A DNA stretch of 64,000 nucleotides, taken from NCBI GenBank assembly GCA_012628545.1, contig GCA_012628545.1_3035.1, one strand, 5' to 3'. Below the pieces are notes generated by a model. It saw nothing but the letters and a program-made list of their open reading frames with translations. It was not told the DNA's origin and ran no database searches. The DNA is from a phage. The translations under genes and the position numbers were made by a program. The number at the start of each line of letters is the position of its first letter. The stretch's first letter is position 1. Shown piece after piece: positions 6,716 to 58,698 of this stretch.

Positions 6716-8303
<1,588 letters not shown>

Positions 8304-8326
8304 AATAAAATGGGCCTTGCGGCCCA
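8304..8326 (-). promoter_or_regulatory. hairpin between nrdB stop and denA start
   Basis: tgggcc-ttgc-ggccca hairpin between a GGAG after the nrdB stop and the denA ATG. Confidence 0.4.
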
Positions 8327-8330
8327 CTCC

Positions 8331-9509
8331 TTAAAAATATTTTTTAAAACTCATCATAACTTTATCATCAACATCATTATCAATCTGTGCAACAAGGTAA
8401 GATGACAGTTCTACTTCTTGCGGCGCGGATTGAACATTATCAGAATTAAGGTATTCACGAATCCAAGGATATGGATGTTTAACCGGAGCATCGGTAATTG
8501 GGCATGGAAGACCGCACTGTTTCATACGAGATACAGTTAAGTAATCAATAAAGCTCCACATGCTATTTGTATTTAATCCAGGAACATCGCCATCTTTAAA
8601 TAAATGAACTGCCCAATCTTTTTCTTGGCGGTTAACTTCCATGAAAATATCAACTGCTTCTTGTTCACACTCTTTGGCAATTTTAACCCATTCATCACCA
8701 TCAGTGCCAAGTTGAAGTTGACGAATAATATATTGTGTACCTTTAAGATGAAGCTGCTCATCACGTGCAATGAACTTCATAATCTTGGCATTACCTTCCA
8801 TGATTTCCATATTCTTGTGGAAGTTAAAGGTACATGCAAAAGATACATAAAAACGAATAGCTTCCAATGCGTTGATTACGTGCAGGCAGAGGTAAAGAGA
8901 GCGCATTAGTTCACGTTTCCAATACATTTCATGCTCTATGGCATCTTCAATAACGTCTTCGTCTGCATTAATTTCTTTTTGGTATTCGATATCAGCTTTA
9001 GCGTTTTCCCAATAACGAGTTTTAATCAGAACATCATCATAATAACGACCAATAGATTCAGCGCGTTTCATAATAGCTTCATCTAATACAATCTCATCAA
9101 ATACCTTTGACGGATCAGTATAAAGATTTCGCATGATATGAGTATATGAACGACTGTGAATAGTTTCACTAAAAGTCCACGTAGCAACCCATGTATCAAG
9201 GCTTGGGTCTGAAATCAATGACATAAGTACAGCAGACGGCGCACGACCCTGAATGCTATCCAAAAGTGATTGATACTTCAGATTATTAGTAAAAATATCT
9301 TGCTGATATTGAGGAAGCTTGTTAAATTGCGCAGCATCCATCATTAAGTTTACTTCTTCAGGGCGCCAGAAAAATGACAACTGCTTTTCGGTTAAATCTT
9401 CAAAAACTTTATGACGTTGAATATCATAACGCGCAATACCAAGACCTGAACCAAAAAACATAGGTTCTTTTAAAACATCAACTGGATTTGTATTAAAAAC
9501 TGTGCTCAT
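8331..9509 (-). CDS. nrdB: ribonucleotide reductase small subunit
   Basis: 392-aa uninterrupted ORF, class Ia R2 family; no intron. Confidence 0.9.
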   Translation of the reverse strand: MSTVFNTNPVDVLKEPMFFGSGLGIARYDIQRHKVFEDLTEKQLSFFWRPEEVNLMMDAAQFNKLPQYQQDIFTNNLKYQSLLDSIQGRAPSAVLMSLISDPSLDTWVATWTFSETIHSRSYTHIMRNLYTDPSKVFDEIVLDEAIMKRAESIGRYYDDVLIKTRYWENAKADIEYQKEINADEDVIEDAIEHEMYWKRELMRSLYLCLHVINALEAIRFYVSFACTFNFHKNMEIMEGNAKIMKFIARDEQLHLKGTQYIIRQLQLGTDGDEWVKIAKECEQEAVDIFMEVNRQEKDWAVHLFKDGDVPGLNTNSMWSFIDYLTVSRMKQCGLPCPITDAPVKHPYPWIREYLNSDNVQSAPQEVELSSYLVAQIDNDVDDKVMMSFKKYF

Positions 9510-24458: not shown

Positions 24459-24463
24459 ATTGA

Positions 24464-24489
24464 GGGAGCCTTCGGGTTCCCTTTTTCTT
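24464..24489 (+). terminator. rho-independent terminator after gene 35
   Basis: GGGAGCC-UUCG-GGUUCCC hairpin followed by UUUUU. Confidence 0.6.
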
Positions 24490-24497
24490 TATAAATA
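24490..24497 (+). promoter_or_regulatory. late promoter (TATAAATA) for gene 36
   Basis: Exact TATAAATA 24 bp upstream of the gene 36 ATG. Confidence 0.6.
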
Positions 24498-25191: not shown

Positions 25192-28100
25192 ATGGCTACT
25201 TTAAAACAAATACAATTTAAAAGAAGCAAAACCGCAGGTGCACGTCCTGCTGCTTCAGTATTAGCCGAAGGTGAATTGGCTATAAACTTAAAAGATAGAA
25301 CAATTTTTACTAAAGATGATTCAGGAAATATCATCGATTTAAGCATTTCTGCTGGTGGTAATATCAGTGGTAATATTACTCAAACTGGTGATTATACACA
25401 GACTGGAAAATTTAATTTAATTGGTCCGCAAATTGTAGAAAGCGGTGGATATATTGAGTTTAATTATCGTACTATTGGAAGTGGGGCTTGGTCTGGTCAA
25501 CACACTGCAAAAGCTCCAATTTTTGTAGATTTAAGCTCAGCTACTTCCACATCTGAATATAATCCTATAATTAAACAGCGCTTTAAAGATGGAACTTTTT
25601 CATTAGGTACTTTAGTTTCTGAAGGTTCGTTGAAGATTCATTATATCAATGAATCTGGCGATTCGAAATATTGGACGTTTCGACGTGACGGCGGATTTGT
25701 TGTTGACGGTGGAGGTTTAGCAGTATCAGGAGGTAGTATAACTACATCTGGAAATATTGCAGCTCTCGGAAATATTACTTCGCCTCAGATTAATACTAAA
25801 AATATTATTTTAGATACAAAAGCATTTGGACAATACGATTCGCAATCATTAGTTCAATATGTTTATCCTGGAACAGGTGAAGAAAATGGTATAAACTATC
25901 TTCGTAAAGTTCGAGCTAAATCAGGCGGAACCATTTACCATGAAATCGCTTCAGCTCAAACCGGTAAAAATGATGAAATTTCTTGGTGGACCGGAAATAC
26001 ACTTACTACTAAATTAATGGGTCTTCGTAATGATGGCGCAATGGTATTACGTCGTTCACTTGCTATTGGCACAATTACCACTGACGAAAATACTAACAAC
26101 TATGGTTCTCCTACTCCAATGGGAGAAAGATATATTGCTTTGGGCGATGCTGCCACTGGTTTAAAATACATTAAGCAGGGTGTTTATGATTTAGTAGGTA
26201 ATTGGAATTCTGTTGCTTCTATTACTCCTGATAGTTTCCGTAGTACTCGTAAAGCGTTATTTGGACGTTCAGAAGACCAAGGCGGAACCTGGACAATGCC
26301 TGGAACGAACGCTGCCTTTTTATCAGTTCAAACACAGGCTGATGAAAACACTGCTGGAGACGGCCAGACGCATATTGGCTATAACTCAGGCGGAAAAATG
26401 AACCACTATTTCCGTGGTAAAGGCAAAACTAATATTAATACTCAGGAAGGTATGGAAGTTAATCCGGGTATTTTGAAATTGGTAACTGGCTCTAATAATG
26501 TAATGTTTTATGCTGATGGCGGTATTACATCTGTTAAGCAGCTTTCAATATATAATGGCATATATTTAGCAGCTAATAATTCTACTGCTGGGCTAACATT
26601 CGCTCCAACTACTACAATTGATGGCACTAAGCAAATTTTGTGGGAAGGCGGTACTCGTGCTGGTCAGAATAAAAGCTATGTAACTGTTAAAGCATGGGGT
26701 AATTCATTTAACGCATCTGGCGATCGTAATCGTGAAACGGTTTTTGAAGTAGCTGATGGACAAGGATATTATTTTTATTCACAGCGTGTGGCTCCAAGTG
26801 GCTCTGAAACTACTGGGCCTGTTGTAACCCAGTTCAATGGACAAGTTAATGCTAGAGGAAGTATTATTACTGACGGAAGTTTTAAAGTTAATGGATTAAG
26901 CACTTTAGTCGGTAATGTTACCATGTCTAATGGTTTGTTTGTCCAAGGTGGTTCTTCTATTACTGGACAAGTAAAAATTGGTGGAACTGCTGATGCATTA
27001 AGAATTTGGAATGCCGAATACGGTGCTATTTTCCGTCGCTCAGAAACAGCATTACATATTATCCCGACTCCTAAAGATGCCGGTGAAAGTGGTGGAATAA
27101 GTAATCTCCGCCCACTTAGTATTAGTCTTAATAATGGTATGGTACAAATGCGCCATTCTGTTACGTTAGGCGATGATGGCGCTGGCGGTAATATGATTAC
27201 TGTGGACAACGATACCAAACTTGTTGTTGTTACTAGTCATAGTCGTATTTCTCCTAATTACCGTATGCAGGTAGGACAAGCAGCTTATATTGATGCTGAA
27301 TGTACTGACACCGTTCGCCCGGCTGGTGCAGGGTCTTTTGCTTCACAAAATAATGAAAACGTTCGTGCTCCGTTCTATATGAATATTAATCGCACAGATA
27401 CAAGTACTTACGTTCCTATTTTAAAACAACGTTATGTTCAAGGAAATAGCTGTTATTCTTTAGGTACTTTAATAAATGGCGGTAACTTCAGAGTTCATTA
27501 TCATGAAGGTGGAGACGGAAGTTCAACAGGCGCAATTATAAAAGATTTAGGCTGGGAATTTACACGTTCTGGTGATTTTATATCTCCTAAGCGCATTTCT
27601 GCTGGGGGTTCAGTTTATTTAGGTACAGACGGTAACATTACTGGTGGTTCTGGTAATTTTGCCAACTTAAATAGTACAATTGAATCACTTAAAACTGATA
27701 TTGTTTCAAGTTATCCTATTGGAGCTCCGATTCCTTGGCCTACTGATACACCTCCTGAAGGTTATGCCATAATGGAAGGTCAAACATTTGATGTTGGCTT
27801 GTATCCTAAGTTAGCTGCGGTGTATCCTTCCGGCTCTCTGCCTGATATGCGCGGGCAAACTATCAAGGGTAAACCATCTGGGCGTGCTGTATTAAGTACA
27901 GAAGCAGACGGTGTTAAGTCACATAGTCATAGTGCAAGTGCATCAAGCACGGATTTGGGTACTAAGACCACATCAAGCTTTGACTATGGTACTAAGACGA
28001 CAAGTAGTTTCGACTATGGTACTAAGACCAGTAATAATACTGGTGCTCATACGCATAGTTTGAGCGGTTCCACAAACACCGCCGGTGCGCACAGCCACAC

Positions 28101-28413
28101 AAGCGCTCTTTATGCGGGAAGTAACAACTCTCCTGGTACTGGTTCTATAAGAGGATCCGCCGGTGGTGGTAATACGCTTGGAACTTCTTCTTCTGGGGCA
28201 CATTCGCACTCTATATCTGGTACTGCTGCAAGCGCAGGCGCTCACGCGCATACTGTTGGTATTGGTGCTCATACCCATACTGTAGGTATCGGTGCTCATA
28301 CCCACACGGTAGCAATTGGCTCGCATGGTCATACTATCACTGTAAATAGTACAGGTAATACAGAAAACACGGTTAAAAACATTGCTTTTAACTATATTGT
28401 TCGTTTAGCATAA
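25192..28413 (+). CDS. 37: long tail fibre distal subunit (receptor-binding tip)
   Basis: 1073-aa ORF; His-X-His repeats and conserved C-terminus [11 protein letters not shown] as in T4-type gp37. Confidence 0.9.
27958..28030 (+). repeat. tandem 30-nt coding repeat in gene 37 ([10 protein letters not shown] x2.3)
   Basis: Two full and one partial copies with identical peptide but different serine codon families. Confidence 0.6.
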
Positions 28414-28417
28414 GGAG

Positions 28418-28433
28418 AGGGGCTTCGGCCCCT
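28418..28433 (+). promoter_or_regulatory. hairpin between Shine-Dalgarno and AUG of gene 38
   Basis: AAGGAGAGG then GGGGC-UUCG-GCCCC then UUCUAAAU AUG. Confidence 0.45.
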
Positions 28434-28440
28434 TCTAAAT

Positions 28441-28992
28441 ATGAAAATCTATCATTATTATTTTGACACTAAAGAATTTTACAAAGAAGAAAATTACAAA
28501 CCTGTTAAAGGTCTCGGTCTTCCTGCTCATTCAACAATTAAAAAACCTTTAGAACCTAAAGAAGGATACGCAGTTGTATTTGATGAACGTACTCAAGATT
28601 GGATTTATGAAGAAGACCATCGCGGCAAACGAGCATGGACTTTTAATAAAGAAGAAATTTTTATAAGTGACATTGGAAGCCCGGTTGGTATAACCTTTGA
28701 TGAGCCCGGCGAATTTGATATATGGACTGATGACGGTTGGAAAGAAGACGAAACATATAAACGCGTTTTAATTCGCAATAGAAAAATTGAAGAATTATAC
28801 AAAGAATTTCAAGTTTTAAATAATATGATTGAAGCTTCTGTCGCGAATAAAAAGGAAAAATTCTATTATAAAAACCTTAAGCGATTCTTTGCTCTTTTAG
28901 AAAAGCATGAGCATTTAGGTGGTGAATTTCCCGCATGGCCTGAAAAAGAACGGAAACCTTGGTATAAGCGTTTATTCAAGCATTACGTATAA
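28441..28992 (+). CDS. 38: tail fibre assembly chaperone
   Basis: 183-aa ORF; matches T4-type gp38 by length and sequence recall. Confidence 0.85.
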   Translation: MKIYHYYFDTKEFYKEENYKPVKGLGLPAHSTIKKPLEPKEGYAVVFDERTQDWIYEEDHRGKRAWTFNKEEIFISDIGSPVGITFDEPGEFDIWTDDGWKEDETYKRVLIRNRKIEELYKEFQVLNNMIEASVANKKEKFYYKNLKRFFALLEKHEHLGGEFPAWPEKERKPWYKRLFKHYV

Positions 28993-28995
28993 ATA
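28988..28995 (+). promoter_or_regulatory. late promoter (TATAAATA) for holin t
   Basis: Exact TATAAATA overlapping the gene 38 stop, 18 bp upstream of the t ATG. Confidence 0.55.
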
Positions 28996-29012
28996 TCTTA
29001 AAAGGAGGGTCT

Positions 29013-29669
29013 ATGGCAGCACCTAGAATATCATTTTCGCCCTCTGATATTCTGTTTGGTGTTCTAGATCGCTTGTTCAAAGATAACGCTACCGGGAAAG
29101 TTCTTGCTTCCCGGGTAGCTGTCGTAATTCTTTTATTTATGATGGCGATTGTTTGGTATAGGGGAGATAGTTTCTTTGAGTACTATAAGCAATCAAAGTA
29201 TGAAACATACAGTGAAATTATTGAAAAGGAAAGAAATGCACGCTTTGAATCTGTCGCCCTGGAACAACTCCAGATAGTTCATATATCATCTGAGGCAGAC
29301 TTTAGTGCGGTGTATTCTTTCCGCCCTAAAAACTTAAACTATTTTGTTGATATTATAGCATACGAAGGAAGATTACCTTCAACAATAACTGAAAAATCAC
29401 TTGGAGGATATCCTGTTGATAAAACTATGGATGAATATACAGTTCATTTAAATGGACGTCATTATTATTCCAACTCAAAATTTGCTTTTTTACCAACTAA
29501 AAAGCCTACTCCCGAAATAAACTACATGTACAGTTGTCCATATTTTAATTTGGATAATATCTATGCTGGAACGATAACCATGTACTGGTATAGAAATGAT
29601 CATATAAGTAATGACCGCCTTGAATCAATATGTGCTCAGGCGGCCAGAATATTAGGAAGGGCTAAATAA
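29013..29669 (+). CDS. t: holin
   Basis: 218-aa ORF with a single N-terminal transmembrane segment after a late promoter; T4 T holin. Confidence 0.9.
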   Translation: MAAPRISFSPSDILFGVLDRLFKDNATGKVLASRVAVVILLFMMAIVWYRGDSFFEYYKQSKYETYSEIIEKERNARFESVALEQLQIVHISSEADFSAVYSFRPKNLNYFVDIIAYEGRLPSTITEKSLGGYPVDKTMDEYTVHLNGRHYYSNSKFAFLPTKKPTPEINYMYSCPYFNLDNIYAGTITMYWYRNDHISNDRLESICAQAARILGRAK

Positions 29670-34304: not shown

Positions 34305-34385
34305 TCACTGGCGTCCGAAGACGCCTTTAGTTTTAAGATTGTTACGATAAAACTGCATCACATGTTCGTTGTGGAAATTACTCAT
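34305..34385 (-). CDS. stp: Stp peptide (26 aa)
   Basis: Hand-translated [26 protein letters not shown]; ATG overlaps ndd stop (TAATG). Confidence 0.7.
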
Positions 34386-36720: not shown

Positions 36721-36740
36721 AAAGGGCCGAAGCCCTTATT
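36721..36740 (-). terminator. UUCG-loop hairpin after ORF 36741..36935
   Basis: aagggc-cgaa-gccctt followed on minus strand by U-rich tract. Confidence 0.4.
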
Positions 36741-36951: not shown

Positions 36952-36970
36952 ATAAGGGCCGAAGCCCTTA
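36952..36970 (-). promoter_or_regulatory. intercistronic UUCG-loop hairpin at rIIB stop
   Basis: Same 17-mer aagggccgaagccctta as at 36722..36738. Confidence 0.35.
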
Positions 36971-37906
36971 TTTAAATTGTTCAGTAACGTCTTCAACTAC
37001 TTCGTATTGGCAGGTACGCATTTTAGCATCGTTGTAATCAATCGGAATTGATACTACATCACGTGGATGTACTTTAACTTTTACAACTCGGCTGGTTGAA
37101 CTGCCAAAGTGACGAATATAAGATTTAGAACACACATGCAGACCACGAGAACAAGTTTGTGTATCATCGTCATTCACACGAGTACGTGGCATTTTAACTA
37201 CTTTACCAGGACTGTTATCAAAGGTGTTTGAGTGACAGTCAAAGTAGTTGTCACGAACTACTTTCCAAGCATAGAAGTAACCATCTTCTGTAATTTCAAT
37301 ATCGTTTGCTACCAAGAAATCAAAGAGTCGAGATACCGCTTTCTGGCTTGGGTTTTCCAGCAGATTTTCCAAGAACGGAAAATAAAATTCAAAGTTTTCA
37401 CCTTTTTCCATCGAGTCAAGAATACGATCAACTAAACCAGATCGCAATTCAATATTTTGATAGAACAAGCTTCCACCTTCAATTCGAACATCACCGGAAA
37501 TATATTTTTCAACAGCGCGGCGAACATTAATTTTTTGTGCCGCTTCTTCCAATTTATCTGCAACAAGCAGATTAAGAATTTCCTGGAAGTTTGAATGAGT
37601 ATTAGGAGTTGCGTTATAAGTTACACCATCAACAGTAATTGAAATGAATTTTTTAGATGCATTCCAAATAATGTCAGATTTAGCAACTGGAGCAATAGCT
37701 ACATCACTCTTAACTTCAACTGTAATGTCACCGCTAATGGTAACTTTAGGACGTTTAGCTTCTTCAGCATTTTTCAAAACACGACGGATTGTGTCAACCG
37801 ATACACCTTGCCAATCAGCCAATTCCTGTTGGGTGTAATTACCACTTGAATACAGTTTGACAATTTCAGCTTGTTCGTTTTTGGTCAGGCATTTAATATT
37901 GTACAT
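36968..37906 (-). CDS. rIIB: rIIB protein
   Basis: 312-aa ORF; T4 rIIB length and synteny. Confidence 0.9.
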   Translation of the reverse strand: MYNIKCLTKNEQAEIVKLYSSGNYTQQELADWQGVSVDTIRRVLKNAEEAKRPKVTISGDITVEVKSDVAIAPVAKSDIIWNASKKFISITVDGVTYNATPNTHSNFQEILNLLVADKLEEAAQKINVRRAVEKYISGDVRIEGGSLFYQNIELRSGLVDRILDSMEKGENFEFYFPFLENLLENPSQKAVSRLFDFLVANDIEITEDGYFYAWKVVRDNYFDCHSNTFDNSPGKVVKMPRTRVNDDDTQTCSRGLHVCSKSYIRHFGSSTSRVVKVKVHPRDVVSIPIDYNDAKMRTCQYEVVEDVTEQFK

Positions 37907-42232: not shown

Positions 42233-42250
42233 AAAGGCCCGAAGGCCTTT
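42233..42250 (-). promoter_or_regulatory. intercistronic UUCG-loop hairpin
   Basis: aaaggcc-cgaa-ggccttt between ORF 42250..42519 and gene 39. Confidence 0.35.
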
Positions 42251-58335: not shown

Positions 58336-58698
58336 TTAAAAGAATTTAAACTTTTTCTTTGACCTTTTATTAAATGCATCTTGTAGTTGCATTGTAATAC
58401 ATTTTTCTACATGAGGAGCTAACTCAGCTTTTCTTTCTTGGTCAAGAACAGCAAAGTCCATTACGACTTTTCCATTAACCCAATCTAATTTTGTCACATA
58501 CACAATGTGTGTAGAACCATCTTCTAGTTTAATGACAATCTCCTGGATAACATTTTCCATGGCAGATTTAATTATCTTAAGAGACTCATTAAAAAGACGT
58601 TCTTTTCTTTCTTCTTCCCCCTCCGAAGAGGGGGATTCATCGATAATTTCTAGATCTAAATCTAAATCATCTTTATTCATTAAATTCTTCCATATCAC
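58336..58698 (-). CDS. 40: gp40 head-assembly accessory protein
   Basis: 120-aa ORF between uvsX and 41. Confidence 0.6.
   Translation of the reverse strand: MIWKNLMNKDDLDLDLEIIDESPSSEGEEERKERLFNESLKIIKSAMENVIQEIVIKLEDGSTHIVYVTKLDWVNGKVVMDFAVLDQERKAELAPHVEKCITMQLQDAFNKRSKKKFKFF

Follow-up and report, generated by a model that had tools for sequence, protein, structure and literature searches.

The junction between genes 37 and 38 in this phage DNA (the window, a single stretch of 64,000 nucleotides) is probably the translation initiation region of a T4-type gene 38 built as a split, or noncontiguous, ribosome-binding site (RBS). At this junction the only Shine–Dalgarno sequence (SD) is distal to the AUG, an intervening C(UUCG)G hairpin would restore a spacing of 7 nt, and the helix carries compensatory changes, though to a modest extent. 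The hairpin element is real and conserved, and it is already known rather than new. Structure in the T4 gene 38 mRNA between the SD and the AUG has been described as cutting a 22-nt spacing to 5 nt (PMC3014915), and the sites of T4 genes 38 and 25 have been termed ‘noncontiguous or split’ (PMC7297116). The preliminary description of this locus had likened it to the split architecture of T4 gene 38, and the likeness holds: the spacer is identical to that of T4, the flanking genes are T4-type, and published descriptions match.

Anatomy of the gene 37/38 junction

Positions 28411–28443 read TAA GGAGAGGGGCTTCGGCCCCTTCTAAAT ATG, or UAA-GGAG-A GGGGC UUCG GCCCC U-UCUAAAU-AUG in RNA, and the intercistronic spacer is 27 nt long (Table 1). 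The product of gene 38 is 97–99.5% identical to gp38 of TuIb, T4, and GiZh, and its N-terminus, MKIYHYYF, is common to gp38 of phage Moon. Its remote homology to lambda Tfa rests on tblastn; a Pfam search returned no match for gp38 at E values up to 0.001. The 218-aa open reading frame that follows is holin t (Phage_holin_T, E = 1e-116). Over 180 nt, the junction matches phage GiZh with 100% identity, and the 27-nt spacer recurs unchanged in resequenced T4 (MT984581.1) and in three metagenomic contigs. Judged by its sequence, the window is a Tequatrovirus, a T4-like phage. An Rfam scan of 27900–29100 at E values up to 10 gave sub-threshold chance matches only, with no curated family for the hairpin element.

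Exact 8-mer matches to the late-promoter consensus TATAAATA on the plus strand between 20 and 34 kb occur only at 24490, before gene 36, and at 28988, before t, from which we infer that gene 38 is probably read from a polycistronic 36-37-38 late mRNA.

Table 1 Features of the gene 37/38 and nrdB/denA junctions
Feature	Coordinates	Strand	Description
Late-promoter consensus TATAAATA	24490-24497	+	Upstream of gene 36; nearest exact match upstream of gene 38
Gene 37	25192-28413	+	Distal long-tail-fibre subunit, 1073 aa; ORF with Pfam Collar and Phage_fiber; gp37 in matching phages
Gene 37 UAA stop	28411-28413	+	Directly abuts the gene 38 SD
SD UAAGGAG	28411-28417	+	Core GGAG 28414-28417; overlaps gene 37 stop codon
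C(UUCG)G hairpin	28418-28433	+	16 nt, between SD and AUG
Stem and loop	28418-28423 with 28428-28433; loop 28424-28427	+	Stem A-GGGGC with GCCCC-U; loop UUCG
Tail UCUAAAU	28434-28440	+	7 nt, pyrimidine/A-rich, hairpin to AUG; effective SD-AUG spacer when folded
Gene 38	28441-28992	+	T4-type tail-fibre assembly chaperone, 183 aa; AUG 28441-28443
nrdB/denA split RBS	8333-8301	minus	UAA-GGAG-UGGGCC GCAA GGCCCA-UUUUAUU-AUG
Mosigvirus S143_2 nrdB/denA hairpin			GGGAC UUCG GUCCC
Jiaodavirus KpV477 nrdB/denA hairpin			GGGGC UUCG GCCCC
Dhakavirus JS98 nrdB/denA hairpin			GGGGC UUCG GCCCC

Predicted fold, spacing, and SD pairing

RNA folding bears out the UUCG hairpin that had been claimed to lie between the SD and the AUG. 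The 33-mer spanning 28411–28443 folds at −13.8 kcal/mol (z = −2.5), a value equalled or bettered by 4 of 200 shuffles, and the hairpin core, a perfect 6-bp helix with the GCCCC arm, folds at −11.9 kcal/mol. The five G-C/C-G stem pairs form with a probability of 0.99–1.0, also when embedded in 133- and 213-nt contexts, and the closing A28418-U28433 pair with a probability of 0.66–0.71. A UUCG loop, a C-G closing pair, and a Watson-Crick stem place the hairpin in the C(UUCG)G type; two relatives carry UUCU or UUCA loops.

From the GGAG core to the AUG the distance is 23 nt; looping out the 16-nt hairpin shortens it to 7 nt, in agreement with the proposal that folding brings the two to a functional spacing. 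The preliminary description had placed the only SD about 24 nt upstream and had read it as GGAGAGG. It is indeed the sole SD, at a measured distance of 23 nt, and the GGAG portion stands, but two of the G's belong to the stem because the stem is A-GGGGC / GCCCC-U. With the 3′ end of 16S rRNA, UAAGGAG is predicted to form a 7-bp duplex of −9.3 kcal/mol, while for the tail UCUAAAU the value is +0.2 kcal/mol. No SD stands at normal spacing after the hairpin, which leaves gene 38 with UAAGGAG alone.

The MFE structure of the free RNA adds three weak pairs (GGA:UCU, approximately −1.9 kcal/mol; extension pair probability 0.33–0.59). Because the stem thereby runs into GGA, the SD bases are predicted to be unpaired with a probability of only 0.24–0.55, and such occlusion taken alone would predict mild inhibition of gene 38 translation. 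These values, together with MFE structures that in nearly all variants extend the stem by 2–4 weak pairs into GGAG, are what would be expected of a translational damper, in which pairing of GGA with UCU or UUU keeps gp38, needed catalytically, at a low level. However, the approximately −1.9 kcal/mol gained by the extension is small beside the −9.3 kcal/mol of the SD:anti-SD duplex, a U-tract accounts for the pyrimidine tail equally well, and published descriptions present the hairpin as translation-enhancing (PMC3014915, PMC7297116). We regard a damper as very improbable.

Conservation across T-even relatives

The comparison of 37/38 junctions covers 22 records or contigs with a T-even-type junction, plus Moon, Lv5cm, and several non-T-even phages. 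Besides the non-T-even phages, the sampled genera are Tequatrovirus, Mosigvirus, Gaprivervirus, Dhakavirus, and Moonvirus, the first four of which supply the 12 tabulated variants. TAA-GGAG is kept in all 12 of these T-even-type variants, and the linear distance from GGAG to AUG ranges from 22 to 27 nt. In all nine variants free of a suspect length difference in a G or C run, the spacing after removal of the hairpin is 7–9 nt and 0 nt separate GGAG from the stem. Scans of IMG/VR and of metagenomes yielded 2 and 4 loci only, all with variants already seen.

The stem itself keeps its pairing in the alignment of 13 junctions, where 97.4% of cells are paired as compared with 30.8–75.0% for slid registers. 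Stem pair 15–22 is G-C in nine sequences, A-U in three, and C-G in one. The A-U pair is found in mogra, 308Ecol101PP, and an IMG/VR locus (L003), with the mogra sequence also present in phiD1 and in loci L008 and L028, and the C-G pair is found in ESCO47 at the position that is G-C in T4-type sequences. None of 500 shuffles reaches the observed covariation score. The covariation is real but thin: the modest signal comes from two events at a single variable pair.

Three records are one base off in a G or C run: the T4 reference NC_000866.4, the 1990 TuIa sequence, and the ‘UNVERIFIED’ TH57 record. Hairpins of this kind are known for gel compressions, and sequencing errors are most simply the source of these one-base differences. 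The 3′ arm in NC_000866.4 (GCCC) is one C shorter than in all modern sequences, probably through a mistake in the reference record. The published change from 22 to 5 nt for T4 gene 38 fits the GCCC arm of this reference, whereas the GCCCC arm gives 23 to 7 nt.

UUCG hairpins and split sites within the window

A search of the window gives 102 non-overlapping ATG-ORFs, 58 of which have a GGAG, GAGG, or AGGA core 3–12 nt before the ATG. A distal SD, with no proximal one, that is combined with a spacing-restoring hairpin occurs at two of the 102 as compared with 0.01 expected from shuffled upstream regions, when the intervening hairpin is set at −11 kcal/mol or better and the restored spacing at 4–10 nt. 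UUCG hairpins with at least five perfect pairs number ten, against 0.7 in Markov-simulated sequence. A chance origin of the 37/38 architecture is ruled out by the fold shuffles, the covariation, the UUCG enrichment, and the count of split sites.

The CUUCGG hairpin was first found in T4 mRNA (PMC4371310), and the 37/38 hairpin shares with the intercistronic C(UUCG)G hairpins of T4 the UUCG loop, the C-G closing pair, the G+C-rich stem, and the intercistronic position. Six of the ten UUCG hairpins in the window, the 37/38 one among them, are of this G+C-rich type. Those at 34310, 36722, and 36952 (minus strand) are followed shortly by a normal SD and ATG, and a terminator-like CUUCGG hairpin followed by a U-run stands after gene 35. 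The 37/38 hairpin differs from these in that it splits the SD from the AUG, and it is the only C(UUCG)G hairpin of the window to do so.

The abundance and placement of these hairpins, and the one after gene 35, speak for the view that the 37/38 hairpin is primarily a generic intercistronic C(UUCG)G element, acting as a partial terminator or attenuator or as a 3′-exonuclease barrier that closes the gene 36-37 message, with its position between SD and AUG simply tolerated. Mosigvirus-type 37/38 junctions, in which the hairpin is followed by TTTTTAT (UUUUUAU in RNA), and the G2285 record, in which AGGGGCTTCGGCCCCT is annotated as a terminator, add to it. A literature search found no T4 RNA 3′-end mapping studies. 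At least five U in the eight positions after the G+C hairpin, the U-tract of an intrinsic terminator, are present in the Mosigvirus-type variants (UUUUUAUA) and in the PY100-type phages discussed below (UUUAUUUUUUU), but not in the window, where the tail UUCUAAAU was not called by a terminator scan. A full terminator would moreover abolish gene 38 expression, because there is no exact late-promoter consensus between genes 36 and t. Termination or stabilisation also leaves unexplained the flush placement of GGAG against the stem, the missing proximal SD, and the 7–9 nt distance. We consider it unlikely to be the primary role.

Variant junctions in other phages

Several phages carry the same hairpin in other settings. 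In Citrobacter phage Moon, the same GGGGCUUCGGCCCC hairpin follows gene 37 with no upstream GGAG, and GAGG stands 5 nt before the AUG. Each junction thus has exactly one usable SD, the upstream GGAG in T4-type phages and the GAGG after the hairpin in Moon, a swap that speaks for the upstream GGAG as the SD at work in T4-type phages. Citrobacter phage Ursula has the same hairpin-SD-AUG cassette before an unrelated gene. In the Yersinia phages PY100 and vB_YenM_12, both non-T4 myoviruses of 50 kb, the fibre C-terminus is 85% identical and comes with the same hairpin: GGGGCTTCGGCCCC follows the homologous C-terminus and is itself followed by TTTATTTTTTT, with no gene 38. To judge from its letters, the PY100-type hairpin with UUUAUUUUUUU is a putative intrinsic terminator of textbook form, a point in favour of termination as the basic role. 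Moon, Ursula, and the PY100-type phages all carry the hairpin where a split-RBS role is impossible, and they count against the split-RBS reading to that extent.

Homologous fibre/chaperone pairs outside the T-even phages are arranged differently. In lambda, P2-like phages, and essentially all prophage matches, a fibre C-terminus ending in ...NYIVRLA is followed by a Tfa/gp38 chaperone through a TAATG stop/start overlap with no hairpin. The degenerate fibre C-terminus pattern with which genome contigs were scanned is loose, and many of its matches are AT-rich Pelagibacter or lambda DNA in unrelated assemblies, but the true prophage fibres among them bear out TAATG coupling and the absence of the hairpin. 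Unlike the T4-type junction, the lambda stf-tfa/P2-type has no spacer, hairpin, or separate SD downstream of the stop; at the window junction there is no TAATG overlap and a 27-nt spacer stands instead. The absence of a hairpin from the TAATG-coupled pairs marks the 27-nt spacer as a T-even innovation. An origin of the T4 spacer by degeneration of the 11–12 extra 5′ codons of lambda/P2 tfa was considered and rejected, as global alignments scored no higher than those of shuffled sequence (p ≥ 0.16).

The near-universal TAATG coupling in prophages, lambda, and P2 implies that coupling is the ancestral logic, and it lends weight to the idea that ribosomes ending at the gene 37 UAA reinitiate 27 nt downstream, with the SD tethering the subunit and the hairpin either incidental or path-shortening. 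The fusion of stop codon and SD in UAAGGAG at both split sites of the window points the same way. So does Salmonella phage Lv5cm, in which a 77-nt tandem duplication covers the hairpin and 19 codons: the second, full-length copy of gene 38 is preceded by the hairpin without GGAG, and the 19-codon ORF ends in UAG at the hairpin foot. If real, this arrangement hints that ribosomes are able to reinitiate past the hairpin, but it comes from one unverified record. A hairpin of −12 kcal/mol is not needed for reinitiation and would hinder it, and reinitiation does not account for the conserved 7–9 nt tail or the compensatory changes, while the normal SD after the hairpin in Moon points to independent initiation. 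Reinitiation as the main mechanism therefore seems improbable.

A twin site at the nrdB/denA junction

The second split site of the window lies between nrdB and denA (Table 1). It has the same fusion of stop codon and SD, the same 16-nt hairpin length, and the same reduction from 23 to 7 nt, with a GNRA tetraloop as its loop. The recurrence of the architecture with equal geometry counts for the split-RBS reading. The nrdB/denA architecture is kept in three other genera, with UUCG loops replacing GCAA, and the stem variants GGGGC, GGGAC, and GGGCC are each found at both 37/38 and nrdB/denA. In the JS98 record, denA is called from an ATG inside the hairpin region and not from the homologous AUG. 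No description of a denA split RBS was found in the searchable literature, and the nrdB/denA instance may be undescribed.

Together with the occurrence at 26/25 reported in the literature (PMC3014915), the 37/38 and nrdB/denA sites of the window raise the tentative idea that ‘UAA-GGAG / G+C hairpin / 7-9 nt / AUG’ is a recurrent, interchangeable intercistronic cassette of the Tevenvirinae and not a gene 38 one-off.

Proposed mechanism and relation to known split sites

The split-RBS reading can be put in terms of the following model. The strong SD, UAAGGAG, set on the gene 37 stop codon, would at 23 nt be too far from the AUG for direct use if 13 nt is taken as the upper limit. As the 30S subunit binds UAAGGAG, the 16 nt after the SD would fold at once into the exceptionally stable C(UUCG)G hairpin, so that the AUG would be presented to the SD-bound 30S only 7 single-stranded nt beyond the helix base. 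The hairpin itself would protrude as a side-loop, out of the mRNA track. By our own estimate, the approximately 18 Å across the helix end would add the equivalent of about 3 nt and keep the spacing in the working range, and one may speculate that, with GGAG and the stem held 0 nt apart, the SD:anti-SD helix could come to stack on the hairpin. That gene 38 translation depends on the fold, and that the ribosome accommodates it, we infer in part from the literature.

The helicase at the entry channel of the ribosome generally lies at +11 to +13. When translation of gene 37 ends at its UAA, the helicase would be placed at approximately 28418–28420, the foot of the hairpin, so that termination might be tied to SD capture. 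The hairpin would probably also serve as an mRNA 3′-end barrier or weak terminator and so help to set a low gp38:gp37 ratio. A terminator or stabiliser role and reinitiation could both coexist with a split RBS, and the combination would be fitting for a chaperone required in much lower amounts than the fibre protein.

The element itself is that of T4, with the same genes, SD, UUCG hairpin, and AUG and a spacer identical to resequenced T4. The closest known system beyond it is the split RBS of T4 gene 25 at the 26-25 junction, where folding takes 27 nt to 11 nt (Nivinskas et al. 1999; Malys and Nivinskas 2009, as cited in PMC3014915). There too a spacing-restoring hairpin splits the SD from the AUG at an intercistronic site conserved in close T-even phages, but the locus is a different one outside the window. 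Reporter and DMS-probing data are described for gene 25 (PMC3014915), and in the literature found, confirmation by mutational tests concerns gene 25 only, whereas for gene 38 a proposal alone was found; the gene 38 mechanism is ‘suggested’ as Gold 1988 is cited in PMC7297116.

Implications

The gene 38 element is a classic case of mRNA structure that aids, rather than blocks, translation initiation, and gene finders or RBS calculators that rely on linear spacing mis-score such split starts, as in the case of JS98 denA. Confirmation at gene 38 alone adds nothing new. The comparison adds modest context in the constant effective spacing, the SD swap in Moon, the terminator use in PY100-type phages, and the twin at nrdB/denA, and it exposes the one-C shortfall of the NC_000866.4 hairpin. 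If the cassette idea is true, a single intercistronic element could unite a leaky terminator or RNA-end barrier, a split RBS, and ribosome capture next to a stop codon, and it would fix the expression ratio of a low-copy downstream gene to its high-copy upstream neighbour.

A second split ribosome-binding site at nrdB/denA

The geometry of the gene 37/38 junction, where a hairpin separates GGAG from the start codon of the tail-fibre assembly chaperone gene, recurs between nrdB and denA, with the same linear spacing of 23 nt that falls to 7 nt once the hairpin is looped out. This second split ribosome-binding site is kept in Mosigvirus, Jiaodavirus and Dhakavirus, where UUCG-loop hairpins replace the GCAA loop of the window, and no description of it was found in the literature searched. 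In the JS98 record, denA is annotated as starting from an ATG within the hairpin region. The nrdB gene is interrupted in T4 by a group I intron with I-TevIII; in the window it is an uninterrupted 392-aa ORF, and this phage appears to lack the intron.

The window has 10 UUCG hairpins of at least 5 pairs, against 0.7 expected, and they include G+C-rich C(UUCG)G hairpins on both strands. The one 3′ of gene 35 is followed by a late promoter, TATAAATA, at 24490.

Positions of the C(UUCG)G hairpins and of the nrdB/denA junction in the window
Feature	Position	Strand	Remarks
C(UUCG)G hairpin, G+C-rich	526-545	minus	
nrdB/denA split RBS	8301-8333	minus	UAA-GGAG-UGGGCC GCAA GGCCCA-UUUUAUU-AUG
nrdB	8331-9509	minus	upstream gene of the junction
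denA	7893-8303	minus	downstream gene of the junction
C(UUCG)G hairpin, G+C-rich	24462-24483	plus	3′ of gene 35, with T-run
C(UUCG)G hairpin, G+C-rich	34310-34325	minus	normal SD and ATG just downstream in flanking sequence
C(UUCG)G hairpin, G+C-rich	36722-36737	minus	normal SD and ATG just downstream in flanking sequence
C(UUCG)G hairpin, G+C-rich	36952-36971	minus	normal SD and ATG just downstream in flanking sequence
C(UUCG)G hairpin, G+C-rich	42233-42250	minus	
C(UUCG)G hairpin, G+C-rich	58616-58635	minus	

The gene 37/38 junction in T4 and its relatives

Comparison of the T4 reference (NC_000866.4, 159623-159648) with window positions 28414-28440 and with resequenced T4 (MT984581.1) reveals that the reference reads GGGGCTTCGGCCC, its 3′ arm being one C shorter than in resequenced T4 and all modern relatives. 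The missing C probably goes back to a compression error in the old sequencing, and it accounts for the published gene 38 spacing of '22 nt'.

Gp37 is 1073 aa long in the window (25192-28413) versus 1026 aa in T4. GiZh, TH09 and S1P5QW align across the whole of gene 37, while for most T4-type phages the alignment begins only near 28243, which marks a mosaic boundary within the His-rich repeat region. The conserved block beyond it comprises the last ~57 codons of gene 37, the hairpin and gene 38.

The hairpin in other phages

In Salmonella phage Lv5cm (MZ150757.1, locus 346-449), a 77-nt segment spanning the hairpin and the first 19 gene 38 codons is duplicated in tandem. The first copy is a short ORF whose UAG stop falls inside the second hairpin copy, and the second copy is full-length gene 38 without an upstream GGAG; the duplication could be either a natural reinitiation test or an assembly artefact.

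The junction of lambda stf-tfa, a fibre/chaperone pair with a TAATG stop/start overlap, was found with identical sequence in assemblies labelled Chromatiales, Draconibacterium, Bradyrhizobium, Chromatium, Leeuwenhoekiella, Algoriphagus, Enterococcus, Nanosynbacter, Pseudomonas and Alistipes (genome-contig loci L034, L043, L048, L055, L057, L058, L065, L071, L076, L085, L091 and others), most likely as lambda DNA contamination.

Citrobacter phages Moon (346-377) and Ursula (693-726) carry an identical cassette, GGGGCTTCGGCCCC-TCTGAGGAAA(C/A)T-ATG, in which a normal SD is located downstream of the hairpin; in Moon the gene that follows is gp38, and in Ursula it is a hypothetical gene unrelated to gp38. 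In the Yersinia phage vB_YenM_12/PY100 group (locus 401-490), non-T4 myoviruses of 50 kb, a stretch is ~85% identical to the final ~50 nt of gene 37 plus the GGGGCTTCGGCCCC hairpin. Downstream of the hairpin these phages have TTTATTTTTTT and lack a chaperone gene; the hairpin thus moves with the fibre C-terminal module and acts as a terminator in this group.
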